Positions 53,315 to 60,082 of a stretch of DNA of 64,000 bases are shown in pieces. The translations under genes and the position numbers were made by a program. The notes beneath the pieces are model-generated. The model was not told the DNA's origin. It worked only from the letters and a program-made list of their open reading frames with translations, and did not search any database. Position 1 is the first letter of the stretch, and each line of letters opens with the position of its first letter. Source of the stretch: Spirochaetaceae bacterium (GTDB lineage Bacteria; Spirochaetota; Spirochaetia; DSM-27196; SLST01). The stretch spans positions 5,660 to 69,659 of the forward strand of contig SKQU01000127.1 in assembly GCA_007118855.1 (NCBI GenBank). The letters are read 5' to 3'.

Positions 53315-55102
53315 CTACACGACCTGCCGGGCCACGTACTTCGTGTGCAGCAGGTGGTGGGAGCGTTCGCCGAGCGGTGCCTTCAGGTAGCGCTCGTAGA
53401 TCTCCGAGATCTGCGGGTTGAGGTGCGACTTGCGCAGCTCCTTCCCCTCGTCCTCGCGGTAGATCGCGGCGATACGCTTGCGCCGGACCTCGTCGGTCGT
53501 CATGCGCGGCTGCCCGCCGCCCCCAATGCATCCGCCCGGGCAGGTCATGATCTCGACGAAGTGGTACTCGCGCTGACCGCTCTTGATCTCTTTGATGAGC
53601 TGCGCTGTGTTGCCGAGCCCATGCGCGACTGCCACCTTGAGCTCCACGCCGTCGAGGAAGCTCCAGTCCGGAAGGGGATCCTCTATGACCAGCGACGCTT
53701 CCTTGATGCCGGCGAGCCCTGCCACCGGTTCGACGTGCAGATTCCCGGTCGGCAACTCGCGACCGGTCACGAGCTCCCACGCGGTGCGAAGCGCCGCCTC
53801 CATGACCCCGCCCGAGTTCGCGAAAATGTCCGCAGCACCCGAGCTCAACCCCATGGGGGCGTCCATCTCGTCGTCGGGCAGCGATCGGAAGTCGATGCCC
53901 GCGGAGGCGATCATCCTCCCGAGCTCCCGCGTCGTGAGAACGTAGTCCACGTCCCGGTAGCCGCTGGCATTCATCTCGTCGCGCGTGGCCTCGAACTTCT
54001 TGGCCGTACACGGCATCACCGACACGACGACCATCTTCTCCGGGTCCACTCCGGCCTGCTCGGCGTAGTAGGTCTTCGCCAGGGCGCCGAACATCTGTTG
54101 CGGCGACTTGCAGGTCGAGAGGTTGGGGAGCATCTCCGGGTAGAAGTACTCGGCGAACTGGATCCAGCCCGGCGAACAGCTCGTGAACTGCGGCAGCGCG
54201 CTGGGTCCGTGGTATCCCTCGGCCTTCCCGGTCAGTGCCGCCTTGAGTCGCATGAGCAGCTCCGTTCCCTCCTCCATGATGGTCAGGTCGGCGGTGAAGT
54301 TCGTGTCGAACACGGCGTGGAAGCCGATCTCGCGCAGCGCGCTCACCATCTTCCCGGTGACCAGCGTGCCCGGCTCGTACCCGAAGCACTCACCGAGCGC
54401 GGCGCGAACGGCCGGAGCGGTCTGGACGACCACGTGTTTCTCCGGATCGTCGAGCGCGCGCCACACACCCTCTATGTGGCTCGCCTCGCTGATCGCGCCG
54501 ACGGGGCAGACCGCGGCGCACTGGCCGCACTGGACGCAGGCGACCGAGTCGAGGTCCATGGCGAAGGCTGGTCCGACCACCGTGTCGTATCCCCGGTACT
54601 GGGGAAAGAGCGCGCCGATCTGCTGCACCTCGTTGCAGACGGTGACGCATCGGCGGCATTTGATGCACTTGCCGGAGTCGCGGATGAGCCCCGGTGTGCT
54701 CGTGTCGAGAACCGACGGGACGCGTTCGCCCTCGTACTCCGGCGCTTCGATCGTCAGATCGTGGGCGATCTCCTTCAGCTCACAGTCCACGCTGCGGTCG
54801 CAGTACTGGCAGTTCCCCTCGTGTTCGCTCAAGAGCAGATCGATCACCGTTCGGCGAGACTGCCGCGCACGGCGGGAGTTCGTGTTGACGACCATGTTGT
54901 CCGTCACGGGCGTTGCGCAGGCGGCCTGGAGTGTCCGCGCGCCCTCAACCTCAACGACGCAGACCCGGCAGGCGCCGAGCGGCGCCCGGTGCTCGAGGAA
55001 GCAGAGGGTGGGAATGGACACCCCTGCCTGCCGGGCGGCGTCGAGTATGGTCGACCCTTCGGCGATCTGAACGTCTTTTCCGTTAATCGTCACGTTATAC
55101 AC
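53315..55102 (-). CDS. hydA: [FeFe]-hydrogenase catalytic subunit (CpI-like M3 architecture)
   Basis: 595 aa. N-terminal 2Fe-2S (CxxxxxxxxxxCxxC), His-ligated 4Fe-4S (HEGNCQYCDRSVDC), 2x 4Fe-4S (CIKCRRCVTVC; CVQCGQCAAVCP). H-domain motifs FTSCSPGW (variant L1), MPCTAKKFE, EIMTCPGGCIGGGGQP. Confidence 0.9.
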   Translation of the reverse strand: MYNVTINGKDVQIAEGSTILDAARQAGVSIPTLCFLEHRAPLGACRVCVVEVEGARTLQAACATPVTDNMVVNTNSRRARQSRRTVIDLLLSEHEGNCQYCDRSVDCELKEIAHDLTIEAPEYEGERVPSVLDTSTPGLIRDSGKCIKCRRCVTVCNEVQQIGALFPQYRGYDTVVGPAFAMDLDSVACVQCGQCAAVCPVGAISEASHIEGVWRALDDPEKHVVVQTAPAVRAALGECFGYEPGTLVTGKMVSALREIGFHAVFDTNFTADLTIMEEGTELLMRLKAALTGKAEGYHGPSALPQFTSCSPGWIQFAEYFYPEMLPNLSTCKSPQQMFGALAKTYYAEQAGVDPEKMVVVSVMPCTAKKFEATRDEMNASGYRDVDYVLTTRELGRMIASAGIDFRSLPDDEMDAPMGLSSGAADIFANSGGVMEAALRTAWELVTGRELPTGNLHVEPVAGLAGIKEASLVIEDPLPDWSFLDGVELKVAVAHGLGNTAQLIKEIKSGQREYHFVEIMTCPGGCIGGGGQPRMTTDEVRRKRIAAIYREDEGKELRKSHLNPQISEIYERYLKAPLGERSHHLLHTKYVARQVV

Positions 55103-58100
55103 GGAGTTCCTCCCGGACTGGTTCTACCTGGGCCGCTGCCGGCTTTCCGTAATCGCAGCGCAGGCAACGCTTGGCCTGGCGCAGGGCGACCGCCTCGCAC
55201 CAGGATTGTTCAACCTCGTCGAAGTTATGACGCCGTCGTCCGACTTCGATCGTCTGATACGGCTCTCGCGGATACGGCGCAGGGTCGGCCTCGGAGTCGA
55301 ATGCGGTGTCGATGGTCTCTGCCTTGCGCCAGAAGGCATGCGACTCTCCCGTCAGGTACAGATCGATTCCGACCGCGGCTCGCTCTCCGGCGGCAATCGC
55401 CGTGACTACGGAGGCGGGTCCGCTCGCCGCATCACCGCCTGCAAAGATCCACGGCACGCTCGTCTGGCCGGTCAGCGGATGGATGCCGATGAAGCCGTCG
55501 GGGGTCATCTCGAGCTCGCTCCCGAGCGCCAGGTCGGGCTGCACGAGCGGCGTGAGATCGAGTGTCTGGCCAATCGCCACGATGACCTGGTCCGCCGGCA
55601 GCTCGAATTCGTCGTGCTCGGAGCGCTGCGGCCGGCGTCGTCCCGAACGGTCGAACTCGCCGAGTGTCATGCGGGCGCACGTGATCGTCCGTGCCTTGCC
55701 TTCCTCGTCCACGTTGACCCGAAGCGGCTGGGTCAGGTCACGGAGCTCGACGCCTTCGTGCAGCGCTTCTTCGATCTCCTCGGCGTAGGCCGGCATCTGC
55801 TCGCGCGTGCGGCGGTAGATGACCGTGACCGTTTCGGCGCCGAGCCGAAGCGCGGTGCGTGCCGCATCGATCGCGGCGTTGCCGCCACCGACGACGACCG
55901 TGTTCTTGCCGACCGGAACCGAGCCGCGGATGTTGTACTGGCGCAGGTAGTCTCCTGCGAGGACCACCCCGTCGGCGTCCTCTCCCGGTACTCCCATGGC
56001 CTGGCAGCCCGGGGCTCCCACGCCGAGGAAAACGGTGTCGTACCCGTCGTCCTGCAGGCTGCCGAGGGTGAAGTCGCGGCCGAGCGCGGTTCCCGTCCGG
56101 ATTTCGACGCCGAGCTGCTCGATCATGCGAATTTCGCGCGCGAGCGTCTCGCGCGGAAGCCGGTACGCGGGAATCGTCTGAACGAGCATGCCGCCGGGTC
56201 GGGACTCGGCCTCAAAGACCGTGGGGCGGTACCCGAGGCGCGCAAGGAAGTACGCGCAGGAGAGGCCCGCGGGCCCCGCGCCGACGATCGCGATCTTTCG
56301 TTTCTCGTTCTCCGGCGATTCGCGGACCTCGGGCGTCTGGATGACGACTTCCTGGTCAACCATGAACCTCTTGACCGCGCGGATGGCTACCGGCTCGTCG
56401 AGCGAGGATCGTCGGCAGTGGTCCTCGCAGGTGTGGAAGCAGACCCGGGCGCAGACGGCCGCGAAGGGATTGCGCTCGCGGTGTACCTGCAGCGCCTCCG
56501 CGTACCGCCGTTCGGCGATCAGGGAGACGAAGCCGGGGACGTCCACGCCGGCCGGACACGCGCTCTGGCAGGGTGCGCGTACCAGCCCCGGGCAGACTCC
56601 TGCCTCGCAGTGCTTCTCCCGGATGTGCGCCTCGTACTCGTGGCGGAAGTGACGAATCGTGGAGAGCACGGGATTGGGCGCCGTCTGTCCGAGCCCGCAG
56701 AGCGAGGTGTCCTTGATCCGCTCTCCGAGTTCGATGAGGCGGTCGATATCGTCCGGTCTGCCGTGGCCGGAGGTGATTCTGTCGAGGATTTCGAGCATCC
56801 GCCGTGTGCCGACGCGACACGGGACGCACTTCCCGCACGACTCCTCCTGGACGAACTCGAGGAAGTAGCGCGCCACGTCGACCATGCAGGTCTCGTCGTC
56901 CATCACGATGAGTCCGCCCGAACCCATGATTGCTCCGAGCTCCTGGAGCGACTCGTAGTCGAGCGGAATGTTCAGATGCTCGCGCGGCACGCAGCCGCCG
57001 GAGGGGCCGCCGATCTGTGCGGCCTTGAATGCGCGTCCGCCCCGGACGCCGCCGCCTATGTCGTAGATCAGCTCACCAAGGGTCGTGCCAATGGGAACCT
57101 CAACGAGACCGGTATTCTCAACGGCTCCCGCGAGCGCGAAGACCTTCGTGCCGGGGCTGTCAGCGGTCCCGATAGCCCGCCATTGTCCTCCGCGCGTCAT
57201 GATGGCGGCGACATTGGCGTAGGTCTCGACGTTGTTCAGGACGCTCGGCCTTCCCCAGAGCCCTTTCTGGGCGGGAAAGGGCGGTCGCGGGCGCGGCTCG
57301 CCGCGCTTGCCTTCGATCGAGTTCATCAGTGCGGTCTCTTCTCCGCAGACGAAGGCGCCTGATCCCTTGCGGATCTCCAGGTCGAACGAGAACCCGCTGC
57401 CGAGGATATCCTCGCCGAGCAGCCCGTATTCGCGGGCCTGGCCGAGTGCGACCTCGAGCCGCTCAATGGCAAGCGGGTACTCGGCGCGAACGTAGACGAA
57501 CCCGCGGACTGCGCCGATCGCCCGTGCGGCGATCGTCATTCCCTCGATCAGGCTGTGCGGATCGCCTTCGAGAATGCTGCGATCCATGAACGCGCCGGGA
57601 TCACCCTCGTCGGCGTTGCAGATCACGTACTTCGCACCGTCCTCCGACTGCGCGTCGCGCGTGAACCGCCACTTCATCCAGGTGGGAAATCCGGCGCCTC
57701 CGCGTCCCCGCAGGCCGGATTCCCTCATCCGCTCGATGATCGCGTCGGGGTCGAGCTTCAGGGCCTCCGCGAGCGCCGCGTACGCCTCATGCGAGATCGC
57801 ATCGTCAATACTGCCCGGGTCCACCGTACCGCAACGTGCAAGGACCGTGCGCGTCTGCGCGTCGAGGAAGGTCTGCACGTCGTCGACCGCATCCCGTTCC
57901 TTGCCGGACAGCGCCTCCTCGATGATACGGTCGATGTCCTGCGGCTCCACATGCGTGTAGCTTCGGCCGGAGGGCAGGACCGTGACGACCGGGCCGCGCG
58001 AGCACGGCCCCATGCAGCCGGTCCCCACGAGCTCGACGGTGCCGTTGCGTTCCGCCAACCGCGCCCGCAGGCGCTCGAGCACCTCGTCGGCCCCTGATGC

Positions 58101-58220
58101 GATACAGCTCGCGCCCATGCAGACACGAAACCGGTGTTCGCACCGGGCCGCGTGCCTGGAACGCTCATCCCGCAGGCTGTGGAGGTCGGCCTGTGTGTTG
58201 ATTCGTCGGTTCGCGCTCAT
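55095..58220 (-). CDS. hydB: HydB-like NuoF-type flavoprotein fused to a GltD/NfnB-like FAD/NAD(P)H oxidoreductase module
   Basis: 1041 aa. N-terminal Trx-like 2Fe-2S (CMGASC...GCMGPC). NuoF motifs GRGGAGFPTWMKW, ICNADEGDPGAF, ESCGKCVPCRVG. Then a GltD-type Fe-S segment (CQSACPAG...CARVCFHTCEDHC), FAD fold IAIVGAGPAGLSCAY and a second Rossmann VVVGGGNAAIDAAR. ATGA overlap with hydC and an 8-nt overlap with hydA. Confidence 0.85.
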   Translation of the reverse strand: MSANRRINTQADLHSLRDERSRHAARCEHRFRVCMGASCIASGADEVLERLRARLAERNGTVELVGTGCMGPCSRGPVVTVLPSGRSYTHVEPQDIDRIIEEALSGKERDAVDDVQTFLDAQTRTVLARCGTVDPGSIDDAISHEAYAALAEALKLDPDAIIERMRESGLRGRGGAGFPTWMKWRFTRDAQSEDGAKYVICNADEGDPGAFMDRSILEGDPHSLIEGMTIAARAIGAVRGFVYVRAEYPLAIERLEVALGQAREYGLLGEDILGSGFSFDLEIRKGSGAFVCGEETALMNSIEGKRGEPRPRPPFPAQKGLWGRPSVLNNVETYANVAAIMTRGGQWRAIGTADSPGTKVFALAGAVENTGLVEVPIGTTLGELIYDIGGGVRGGRAFKAAQIGGPSGGCVPREHLNIPLDYESLQELGAIMGSGGLIVMDDETCMVDVARYFLEFVQEESCGKCVPCRVGTRRMLEILDRITSGHGRPDDIDRLIELGERIKDTSLCGLGQTAPNPVLSTIRHFRHEYEAHIREKHCEAGVCPGLVRAPCQSACPAGVDVPGFVSLIAERRYAEALQVHRERNPFAAVCARVCFHTCEDHCRRSSLDEPVAIRAVKRFMVDQEVVIQTPEVRESPENEKRKIAIVGAGPAGLSCAYFLARLGYRPTVFEAESRPGGMLVQTIPAYRLPRETLAREIRMIEQLGVEIRTGTALGRDFTLGSLQDDGYDTVFLGVGAPGCQAMGVPGEDADGVVLAGDYLRQYNIRGSVPVGKNTVVVGGGNAAIDAARTALRLGAETVTVIYRRTREQMPAYAEEIEEALHEGVELRDLTQPLRVNVDEEGKARTITCARMTLGEFDRSGRRRPQRSEHDEFELPADQVIVAIGQTLDLTPLVQPDLALGSELEMTPDGFIGIHPLTGQTSVPWIFAGGDAASGPASVVTAIAAGERAAVGIDLYLTGESHAFWRKAETIDTAFDSEADPAPYPREPYQTIEVGRRRHNFDEVEQSWCEAVALRQAKRCLRCDYGKPAAAQVEPVREELRV

Positions 58221-58765
58221 TCGGCAACTCCTTCTGTGACCAGATCCGTCTCGTGCTCCTCGTTCTCCTCCTCGCGGTACGAGGCGAGTAGCTCGCGGAC
58301 TCGAGCGGGTTTCACCCGTTGATGCACGTCGTCGTCGACCATCACAACCGGCGCAAGCCCGCAGGCGCCGAAACAGCGTCCGATCTCGAGCGAGAAGAGG
58401 CGATCCTCAGTCGTCTGACCGACCTCGATTCCGAGCTCATGCCGCAGTGCGGCGAGCACTTCCTGTCCTCCGCGGACATAGCAGGCGGTGCCGAGGCATA
58501 CCCGGATGAGGCGGCGCCCGCGAGGGACGGTCGAGAAGAACGAGTAGAAGGTCACCACCCCCGCAACTTCGCTGAAGGGAATGTCGAGTCGCCTGCTGAT
58601 GTGGCGGATCACCTCGTCCGGCAGGTACCCGAAGAGCTCCTGCGCCCGCTGGAGAGCCGGGATGAGCAGTCCCTTGACATCCTTTCGCTCGTCAATGAAG
58701 CGGTCGAGCTCGGCAAGCTTGACCTGGTCCACCTCTTCGGCACACTGGTTGTTCTGCCGCACCAT
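58217..58765 (-). CDS. hydC: NuoE/HydC-like thioredoxin-fold [2Fe-2S] subunit
   Basis: 182 aa, RBS AAAGGAG. LIPALQRAQELFGYLP, CLGTACYVRG...CFGACGLAPV cysteine pattern. Confidence 0.85.
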   Translation of the reverse strand: MVRQNNQCAEEVDQVKLAELDRFIDERKDVKGLLIPALQRAQELFGYLPDEVIRHISRRLDIPFSEVAGVVTFYSFFSTVPRGRRLIRVCLGTACYVRGGQEVLAALRHELGIEVGQTTEDRLFSLEIGRCFGACGLAPVVMVDDDVHQRVKPARVRELLASYREEENEEHETDLVTEGVAE

Positions 58766-58832
58766 ATGGGTCTCCTTTCTTCTCGTATCTCATCGGAACC
58801 GAAGCTCCGCGCTCAACAGAAAGAAGAGGACT

Positions 58833-58895
58833 GTCGGTAATCTATTATCGATATAACCGAATCGATATCCTCAAATCGATACTACATGAACGATA
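58833..58895. promoter_or_regulatory. Array of 14-bp-phased ATCGATA repeats upstream of the hydrogenase operon
   Basis: GTCGGTA 58833, ATCGATA 58847, ATCGATA 58861, ATCGATA 58875, AACGATA 58889, giving an exact 14-bp spacing. It lies in an AT-rich 138-bp gap, 68-130 nt upstream of the hydC start on the minus strand. Confidence 0.5.
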
Positions 58896-58903
58896 AGAGA
58901 ATG

Positions 58904-60082
58904 TCAAATGGTATCCGGCCTCTGTCCTGCGGCGAAGTACGCCTCGATCTCGCCCGCCAGCGGTGGTACGCGTCGCAGCCCGTTGTCCGTCCGCAGTGAG
59001 TCCGTTGCCATCACGCCGGCGGCAACCGCGTACCGTGCGGCGACCGGCGAGGTATTGGGAGGCGTCCCGTTGCGGAGAAAGTCCACGAAACTCCGGACGA
59101 TCGCCGGGTCCGACCCGCCATGGCTCCCCGATTGGGGGCGCATCGCAATCGTCTCATCGGGCTCGCTCCGGCCGCCGGACCTCGTCGTGTAGAGATGAAC
59201 CGCGCAGCTTCCCGAGTCGCCGAAGTTCTCAATCCGTCCTTCGGTCCCGATGAAGGTGTAGTTGCGCCAGTAATCGGGCGTGTAGTGGCACTGGACGTAC
59301 GAGGCCTGGACGCCGTTGGCCAGCTGCATGAGCACCATGGTGTGGTCTTCAACGTCGATCTGCGGCGAATAGTCGTCGGCGGCCAGCGGCGGCCAGTTCT
59401 TTGAGTCGATCGACACGGACATCGTCTCGCCCGGTTCTCTGCGCCGGGCACGGTTGTAAACGGAGAGCTTGCCCATGGACACGACCGCCTGCGAGTAGCT
59501 TCCCGCGAGCCAGTGGATCACGTCGATGTCATGAGCTCCCTTCTGCAGGAGCAGTCCGGTCGTGTTTTTCCGCTCGGAGTGCCAGTCCTTGAAGTAGGCA
59601 TCGCCTCCAATCCCCACGAAGTGGCGGCACCAGACCGCCTCCAGGCGCCCGATCCTGCCGGAGTCAAGGAGGCGCTTCATCGCGAGGACCGCCGGGAAGT
59701 AGCGCATGTTGTGGCCGAGGTAGAGCCGACTGCCGGTTCGCATCGCGGTCTCAAGGATCCGGTCGGCGCCCTCGATTGTGATCGCAATCGGCTTCTCGAG
59801 GTAGACCGCCTTCCCGGCCTCGAGCGCCGCGGTCGCGTGCGATTCGTGCAGGTGGTCCGGGCTGCAGACGAAGACGCCGTCGAGGTCGTCCCGTTCGACG
59901 AGCTCCCGGTAGTCCGAGGTCACAAAGCGATCGGGCCCGTGCTTCTCCCGGAACCGCTCCAGTGCCTCCGGAACGACGTCCGCGGCCGCGACGAGCCGGC
60001 TTGCCGGGTCGACATCCTCCACACAGGAGGCGAGAGAGCCTCTGCCCCCGGGACCGATCACGCCGAAACGTAATGCTTCCAT
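58904..60082 (-). CDS. Gfo/Idh/MocA-family NAD(P)-dependent oxidoreductase
   Basis: 392 aa. N-terminal Rossmann FGVIGPGGRG, EKP motif (VYLEKPIA), C-terminal alpha/beta dimerisation domain. Confidence 0.85.
   Translation of the reverse strand: MEALRFGVIGPGGRGSLASCVEDVDPASRLVAAADVVPEALERFREKHGPDRFVTSDYRELVERDDLDGVFVCSPDHLHESHATAALEAGKAVYLEKPIAITIEGADRILETAMRTGSRLYLGHNMRYFPAVLAMKRLLDSGRIGRLEAVWCRHFVGIGGDAYFKDWHSERKNTTGLLLQKGAHDIDVIHWLAGSYSQAVVSMGKLSVYNRARRREPGETMSVSIDSKNWPPLAADDYSPQIDVEDHTMVLMQLANGVQASYVQCHYTPDYWRNYTFIGTEGRIENFGDSGSCAVHLYTTRSGGRSEPDETIAMRPQSGSHGGSDPAIVRSFVDFLRNGTPPNTSPVAARYAVAAGVMATDSLRTDNGLRRVPPLAGEIEAYFAAGQRPDTI

Follow-up and report, generated by a model that had tools for sequence, protein, structure and literature searches.

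A row of abutting 14-bp sites over a predicted hydCBA hydrogenase promoter is a probable target of an NF003994 Rex-family repressor

The predicted promoter of the hydCBA hydrogenase operon in a 64-kb stretch of spirochete DNA (the window) is covered by what is most likely a row of five abutting 14-bp operators, which, judging from their sequence and genomic associations, are likely to be the target of a Rex-family, NADH/NAD+-sensing repressor of the little-studied, hydrogenase-linked NF003994 branch. In anaerobes, the NADH/NAD+ balance is sensed chiefly by Rex, which controls fermentation as well as the production of hydrogen. The link to Rex is drawn from the statistical association of such arrays with rex and Rex-type genes and from the similarity to known Rex operators that emerges when the sites are aligned on their dyads. 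The regulator family and its physiological logic are already known, while the operator sequence and its tandem architecture appear to be new.

A phased array upstream of the hydCBA operon

The operon and its upstream neighbor are arranged as follows.

53315..55102, minus strand: hydA, [FeFe]-hydrogenase catalytic subunit, last gene of the operon
55095..58220, minus strand: hydB, NuoF-like subunit fused to a GltD/NfnB-like module, 1041 amino acids
58217..58765, minus strand: hydC, NuoE-like 2Fe-2S subunit, first gene of the operon
58904..60082, minus strand: GFO/IDH/MocA oxidoreductase gene, upstream boundary of the element and not part of it

The gene that follows hydA is convergent, and the array occupies the 138-bp gap between the GFO/IDH/MocA gene and hydC. 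The window matches contigs in two metagenome-assembled genomes from soda lakes (GCA_007124615.1 and GCA_007132295.1), and both the nearest named HydC homologs and the closest species representative (L098, Spirochaetales bacterium CSSed162cmB_334) point to Spirochaetota. The C-terminal module of the 1041-residue HydB of the window clade consists of Fer4_20 and Pyr_redox_2 domains and is absent from the 638-residue HydB of rex-linked operons; this extra module may confer a different nucleotide specificity.

An earlier note, made from the sequence of the window, had reported five ATCGATA-type boxes at an exact 14-bp period upstream of the hydrogenase operon, and every position was recovered.

58833..58895, minus strand: five-box array, exact 14-bp period, reading TATCGTT, TATCGAT (three times) and TACCGAC in the order of the transcribed strand
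58833: box 1, GTCGGTA on the plus strand, TACCGAC on the minus strand
58847, 58861 and 58875: boxes 2 to 4, each ATCGATA on the plus strand and TATCGAT on the minus strand
58889: box 5, AACGATA on the plus strand, TATCGTT on the minus strand

The placement of the array 68-130 nt upstream of the hydC start codon, which lies at 58765, was likewise correct, as was its assignment to the most AT-rich intergenic region, positions 58840-58909 being the AT-richest 70 nt of the window (31% GC, against 65% across the window). Across the whole window ATCGATA shows no over-representation, with seven matches where 5.5 are expected, and four of the seven fall inside a single 35-bp stretch of the array. The periodicity, by contrast, is sharp: at period 14 the best three-box and five-box scores are 18/18 and 27/30, while the maxima at all other periods from 9 to 20 are 12 and 17, respectively, and neither period-14 score was reached once when these 145 bp were simulated 20,000 times with a first-order Markov model, each simulation being scored as the best of 12 periods. 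No second such array was found in the 64-kb window.

Boxes and phase are retained in relatives

Loss of the boxes or of their phase in related genomes had been named as an observation that would speak against function. We compared contigs of six lineages with HydC identities of 78-98% (about 98, 88, 86, 82, 80 and 79%), and in all six, three, four or five TATCGAT boxes at 14-bp spacing lie downstream of a TTGACA, so that both boxes and phase are kept. The spacers differ freely among these lineages and the upstream gene differs too. In L008 and L012 the first box on the transcribed strand (box 5 above) is a perfect TATCGAT, which indicates that the weak first box of the window is a local change.

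An origin of the array as a functionless product of chance, or as a decaying 14-bp tandem duplication, was given some initial plausibility by the many plain 7- and 14-bp tandem repeats containing ATCGAT that were returned by a genome scan described below. This explanation is effectively refuted: the spacers of the window array share no sequence when compared with one another, the observed score was never reached in simulation, relatives keep the boxes while their spacers diverge, and the same layout stands before related genes in unrelated phyla. A plain tandem repeat or iteron-like DNA was rejected on related grounds, with the spacers unrelated within the array and divergent between relatives, and the whole unit therefore not conserved.

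The array overlies a predicted promoter

A consensus scan predicts a sigma-70-type promoter that overlaps the array, and a small hairpin was found in the leader.

58902..58907, minus strand: predicted -35 hexamer TTGACA, from the consensus scan, kept in all relatives
58879..58884, minus strand: predicted -10 hexamer TAGTAT, from the consensus scan, separated from the -35 hexamer by a 17-nt spacer
58794..58809, minus strand: small 5'-UTR hairpin CGGAGC-uucg-GUUCCG, between the array and the ribosome-binding site, also present in the computed leader fold

The stop codon of the upstream GFO/IDH/MocA gene, TGA at 58904-58906, falls within the predicted -35 hexamer, and the last three bases of the predicted -10 hexamer, which reads TAGTAT or TAATAT at the same position in relatives, are the first three bases of a box. 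With transcription predicted to start at about 58872, two boxes lie within the predicted promoter, one in the spacer between the -35 and -10 hexamers and one at the -10 hexamer, and three lie downstream of the start. This layout fits a repressor. No terminator was predicted between the upstream GFO/IDH/MocA gene and the promoter, making read-through from the upstream ABC-DUF1854-oxidoreductase genes possible.

The three boxes that would be carried into the transcript, together with the conserved small hairpin downstream of the array, raise the question of whether the array acts in the mRNA leader, as a repeated UAUCGAU that is bound by an RNA-binding protein or that forms a regulatory structure. 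The hairpin reads CGGAGC-cacg-GCUCCG in L008, a change from G.U to G-C, and CGGAG-cauuga-CUCCG in L012, and in L014 another hairpin occupies the same place. We nevertheless regard action in the leader as very improbable, given that two of the boxes sit in the promoter itself, that the leader fold is no better than that of shuffled sequence (z = -0.9), and that the motif, a palindrome, is found in either orientation with respect to genes, as expected of DNA sites. A search for known cis-regulatory RNAs, riboswitches or leaders, found no Rfam family near threshold, the sole match, speF, reaching 12 bits where the gathering score is 37, and this candidate was rejected.

Arrays are associated with rex and with Rex-type target genes

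We scanned one genome per species for the pattern ATCGAT-N8-ATCGAT-N8-ATCGAT and obtained at least 120 loci. Among the matches listed, about 35 have divergent AT-rich spacers, and many others are plain 7- or 14-bp tandem repeats. One Gemmatimonadales genome contributed at least 11 loci of ATCGATG/ATCGATC heptamer tandem repeats (L051, L055, L066, L068, L097, L100, L102, L118, L129, L137 and L139), simple repeats unrelated to the operator that are also matched by the 14-bp pattern. The gene directly downstream of the roughly 35 divergent-spacer arrays among the matches listed is a rex homolog in 15 cases, an iron-dependent alcohol dehydrogenase gene (Fe-ADH) in four, adhE in three, hydCBA in three, ldh in one (from a soda-lake member of the Spirochaetia) and an SDR gene in one. 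The genes behind the arrays are thus the textbook Rex regulon, and the arrays listed come from Clostridia, Spirochaetota, Flexilinea, Syntrophorhabdaceae, Verrucomicrobiota, a Bacteriovoracaceae genome and others.

A second set of loci was assembled from the protein side, comprising 80 metagenome loci with relatives of eight array-linked Rex proteins and yielding 78 usable upstream regions; as these loci were picked by protein sequence alone, circularity is avoided. The mean best three-box score across the 78 rex upstream regions is 13.7 at period 14, compared with 10.1-11.5 at other periods, and scores of at least 16/18 were reached at period 14 in 27 of the 78 regions and at no other period from 9 to 20 in any of them. 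Expressed by length, there are 27 strong arrays in 22.7 kb of rex upstream sequence and none in 308 kb elsewhere in the same loci. Where enough downstream sequence was available, hydC starts no more than 200 nt after rex in 53 of 68 loci, indicating that the NF003994 branch is mostly the first gene of rex-hydCBA operons. Homologs of this branch were found in Spirochaetota, Clostridia, Chloroflexota, Desulfobacterota, Verrucomicrobiota, Acidobacteriota and other phyla. No array was present in the rex upstream regions of a high-GC subgroup of the same branch (L174, L175, L181, L185, L188 and L202), the Rex proteins of which carry the helix and wing sequence TQVRKDLAATGSQGKPKVGHRV.

The window lineage differs from most of these cases in that the array lies directly before hydC with rex not adjacent, and no rex gene is present in the 64-kb window. 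Candidate homologs were rejected as the window genome's own rex, having come from other samples, and HydC from rex-linked operons shares no more than 49% identity with that of the window, so that no rex-linked relative serves as a proxy for the Rex of the window genome.

Two further loci carry additional features near the array. In a Bacteriovoracaceae genome (L061:5689-7986), genes for a PP2C-type phosphatase and a PAS-containing HydS-like sensory hydrogenase precede an array-hydCBA arrangement, and are a second, H2-sensing layer of control beside the same type of operator. In L074 (5787-5930), a fragment similar to the Rex C-terminus lies between the array and adhE and, from its sequence, may be the remnant of a rex gene.

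The binding unit spans the spacer between two boxes

The unbiased logo, built from 126 boxes in 35 non-redundant arrays of three to six boxes each, is TATCGATA, in which T at position -1 has a frequency of 0.79 and A at position +6 a frequency of 0.81; the flanks are A/T-rich. The longest array seen, in a Treponema locus (L070:1733-1822), consists of seven perfect TATCGATA boxes at 14 bp and has no obvious gene start within 300 nt.

These boxes also bear on whether ATCGAT might be the target of a methylation or restriction system and the array an epigenetic switch. Type II systems recognize 6-bp palindromes of this kind, and ATCGAT is one. Such a switch is extremely improbable in our view, because ATCGAT is frequent in the window (31 sites, the majority within coding sequence) and so is not avoided, and because the 14-bp phase, the conserved T and A on either side of the boxes and the presence across many phyla of degenerate boxes (TCTCGATA, TATAGATA) speak for a protein-binding matrix rather than for the strict site of an enzyme.

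The protein-binding unit itself appears to be better read as (TC)GATA-N6-TATC(GA), with its dyad in the middle of the spacer, and as a variant of the clostridial Rex operator. A dimer straddling one spacer would read the inner halves of two boxes, and the palindromic TATC/GATA box is therefore probably not the binding unit but the seam where two abutting 14-bp operators meet. Defined in this manner, the window holds five units, each with at least six of eight matches, that together span 58836-58905.

58892..58905, minus strand: operator 0, GACA-ttctct-TATC, left half-site formed by the end of the -35 hexamer
58878..58891, minus strand: operator A, GTTC-atgtag-TATC, covering the -10 hexamer
58864..58877, minus strand: operator B, GATT-tgagga-TATC, covering the predicted transcription start
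58850..58863, minus strand: operator C, GATT-cggtta-TATC
58836..58849, minus strand: operator D, GATA-atagat-TACC

The register of operator 0 is also found in L008, L012, L014, L016 and L018. Operator A is weakened in the window genome, relatives reading GATC-...-TATC, and operator B is invariant in L008 and L012.

If boxes are junctions of units, a terminal box should require no more than its inner half, and this asymmetry was observed in the unselected flanking boxes of 43 arrays. In the 5' flank box GATA is kept at 0.64 and TATC at 0.24 (p about 1e-5), and in the 3' flank box TATC is kept at 0.55 and GATA at 0.31 (p about 1e-4), these p-values being optimistic on account of the phylogenetic relatedness of the sampled sequences. 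The pattern-first genome set displays the same trend, which there is not significant, and the last box of the window clade retains the outer half GATA, which the model of abutting operators does not need. The sequence evidence upholds two proposals of the earlier note, that a phased array of protein-binding sites lies in the hydC promoter region and that several protein units would bind in a row rather than a single dimer operator being occupied, with the row now resolved into probable abutting 14-bp operators. Its geometric reading also stands, as a 14-bp step turns each successive unit by about 120 degrees around the helix.

Relationship to known Rex operators

The canonical Rex operator has a 7-4-7 arrangement, TTGTGAA-N4-TTCACAA, and in the structure of the S. 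agalactiae Rex-operator complex Arg50 reads the G located 6.5 bp from the dyad and Arg51 the one at 4.5 bp, with Ala47 reaching position 5.5 through a water molecule (PMC8376106). The half-sites, written toward the dyad, compare as follows.

Canonical: T T G T G A A n n
Clostridial: T T G T T A A n n
Array type: T C G A T A w n n

When their dyads are superimposed, the clostridial TTGTTAA and array-type TCGATAw half-sites agree at four of seven positions. Canonical and array operators alike are inverted repeats that carry a G/C pair 6.5 bp away from the dyad and are A/T-rich further in, and by alignment GATA-N6-TATC places its G and C at the 6.5-bp position seen in the 3KET complex. Both types are also situated on promoters of NADH-recycling genes (adhE, adh, ldh and hydrogenase) and on that of rex itself, in keeping with autoregulation. 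The array operator differs from the clostridial form in its bases at 7.5 and 5.5 bp, and from the TTGTGAA form also in the base at 4.5 bp. A further distinction is architectural: whereas canonical Rex operators are described as single 18-bp sites, the outer TC flank of the array operator completes a palindrome with the next unit, such that the units abut every 14 bp in runs of three to six boxes.

No match to TTGTGAA-N4-TTCACAA or TTGTTAA-N4-TTAACAA with up to two mismatches occurs anywhere in the window, including near hydC, and the rex upstream regions of relatives contain only weak matches to canonical Rex boxes. The earlier note was thus correct that no TTGTGAA-type string is present; its dismissal of Rex did not hold, as arrays of this kind front rex genes and classic Rex targets across phyla.

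Array-linked proteins belong to the Rex family

The array-linked proteins of relatives are, on sequence criteria, genuine Rex. They score 260-281 bits on the NCBIfam model NF003994 (cut-off 130), carry an N-terminal winged helix (PF06971) and a Rossmann NAD(H) domain (PF02629), and give full-length alignments with the solved structures of Rex from T. ethanolicus (3WG9), T. maritima (5ZZ5), B. subtilis (2VT2), T. aquaticus (3IKT) and S. agalactiae (3KET), at E-values of 7e-38 to 3e-29. Two motifs of the NAD(H) site, GxGxxG (Rossmann) and FD, do not vary among them.

Differences from the structure-solved proteins emerge in the DNA-reading elements. The recognition helix reads [ITV]-Q-V-R-K-D-L, compared with A-T-I-R-R-D-F or S-Q-I-R-Q-D-L in structure-solved Rex, and the wing reads G-[KR]-P-[KR]-x-G-Y, compared with G-x-x-G-Y-G-Y; the array-linked proteins also have a separate NCBIfam model, NF003994. 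Arg50 is retained in all of them, Ala47 is replaced by Ile, Thr or Val, and Arg51 by Lys, so that where the operator bases differ, at 5.5 and 4.5 bp, the residues that read them (47 and 51) differ too. Clostridial Rex offers a comparable case, with Arg51 replaced by Gln together with the change from G to T at 4.5 bp. The second Rex of C. thermocellum (Clo1313_1799 / Cthe_0422) is a divergent paralog with 34-36% identity to characterized Rex, for which a DAP-seq study reported no binding motif (PMC8457756); by description, it resembles the array-linked proteins in being a divergent Rex.

A different transcription factor, such as a filament-forming ribbon-helix-helix or Xre-type protein that controls rex and the fermentation genes, could in principle bind the array instead. 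The binder is proposed here from sequence associations, no rex adjoins the operon in the window, and each box is an 8-bp palindrome able to seat a small dimer alone. Precedents exist for filament-forming repressors on contiguous short repeats, including omega of pSM19035 (7-bp heptads), MetJ (8-bp met boxes) and MraZ (10-bp repeats), and these share with the array a run of short phased sites over a promoter and a multi-unit, probably cooperative occupancy. They have other protein folds and other periods, however, while the array unit is a 14-bp inverted repeat suited to a winged-helix dimer, and no genes of the omega, MetJ or MraZ type were found linked to the arrays. We consider another factor unlikely, since rex recurs beside the arrays and no other regulator gene does, the genes that the arrays precede make up the classic Rex regulon, the unit, once aligned on its dyad, agrees with known Rex operators where conserved residues read the bases, and array ends keep only the inner half-boxes, unlike what binding centered on the box would leave.

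Discussion

With a Rex-family protein of the NF003994 branch as the probable binder in the window organism, a course of regulation can be proposed by analogy with characterized Rex proteins, from which we infer both the response to NADH and the action as repressor rather than activator. Rex dimers would occupy the abutting units, each lying across one AT-rich 6-nt spacer, and would block access to both promoter hexamers and to the start site, over a stretch from -35 to about +35. As long as the NADH/NAD+ ratio is low, the promoter would stay covered and transcription blocked; a rise in NADH would release Rex, as in characterized members of the family. The derepressed operon would then provide the electron-bifurcating (confurcating) hydrogenase, which would re-oxidize NADH and ferredoxin to H2. 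A link between Rex and bifurcating hydrogenases has already been proposed (PMC10084766; PMC8457756).

The neighboring dimers of such a row may be bound simultaneously and may cooperate. As the operators abut without a gap and each box is shared by its neighbors, side-by-side binding of Rex is possible, and a more speculative extension, which we put forward as doubtful, is that the dimers, each turned by about 120 degrees relative to the last, form a short helical protein coat over the promoter whose contacts would make derepression by NADH steep and switch-like. Redox sensing through a helical coat is not known to have been described for Rex.

In the literature searched, we found no description of ATCGAT-type or tandem abutting Rex operators, though an earlier description may exist, and the Rex motifs encountered were all of the TTGTGAA or TTGTTAA type. 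The Rex regulons found so far were rebuilt with a TTGTGAA or TTGTTAA motif, which would miss GATA-N6-TATC sites. Should Rex proteins of the NF003994 branch, which is widespread across phyla, prove to bind these arrays, the redox regulons of many uncultured hydrogen producers would become readable from sequence. The tandem abutting operators would further offer a simple test case for how site number tunes a metabolic switch, and the motif could serve in the engineering of hydrogen or ethanol production.
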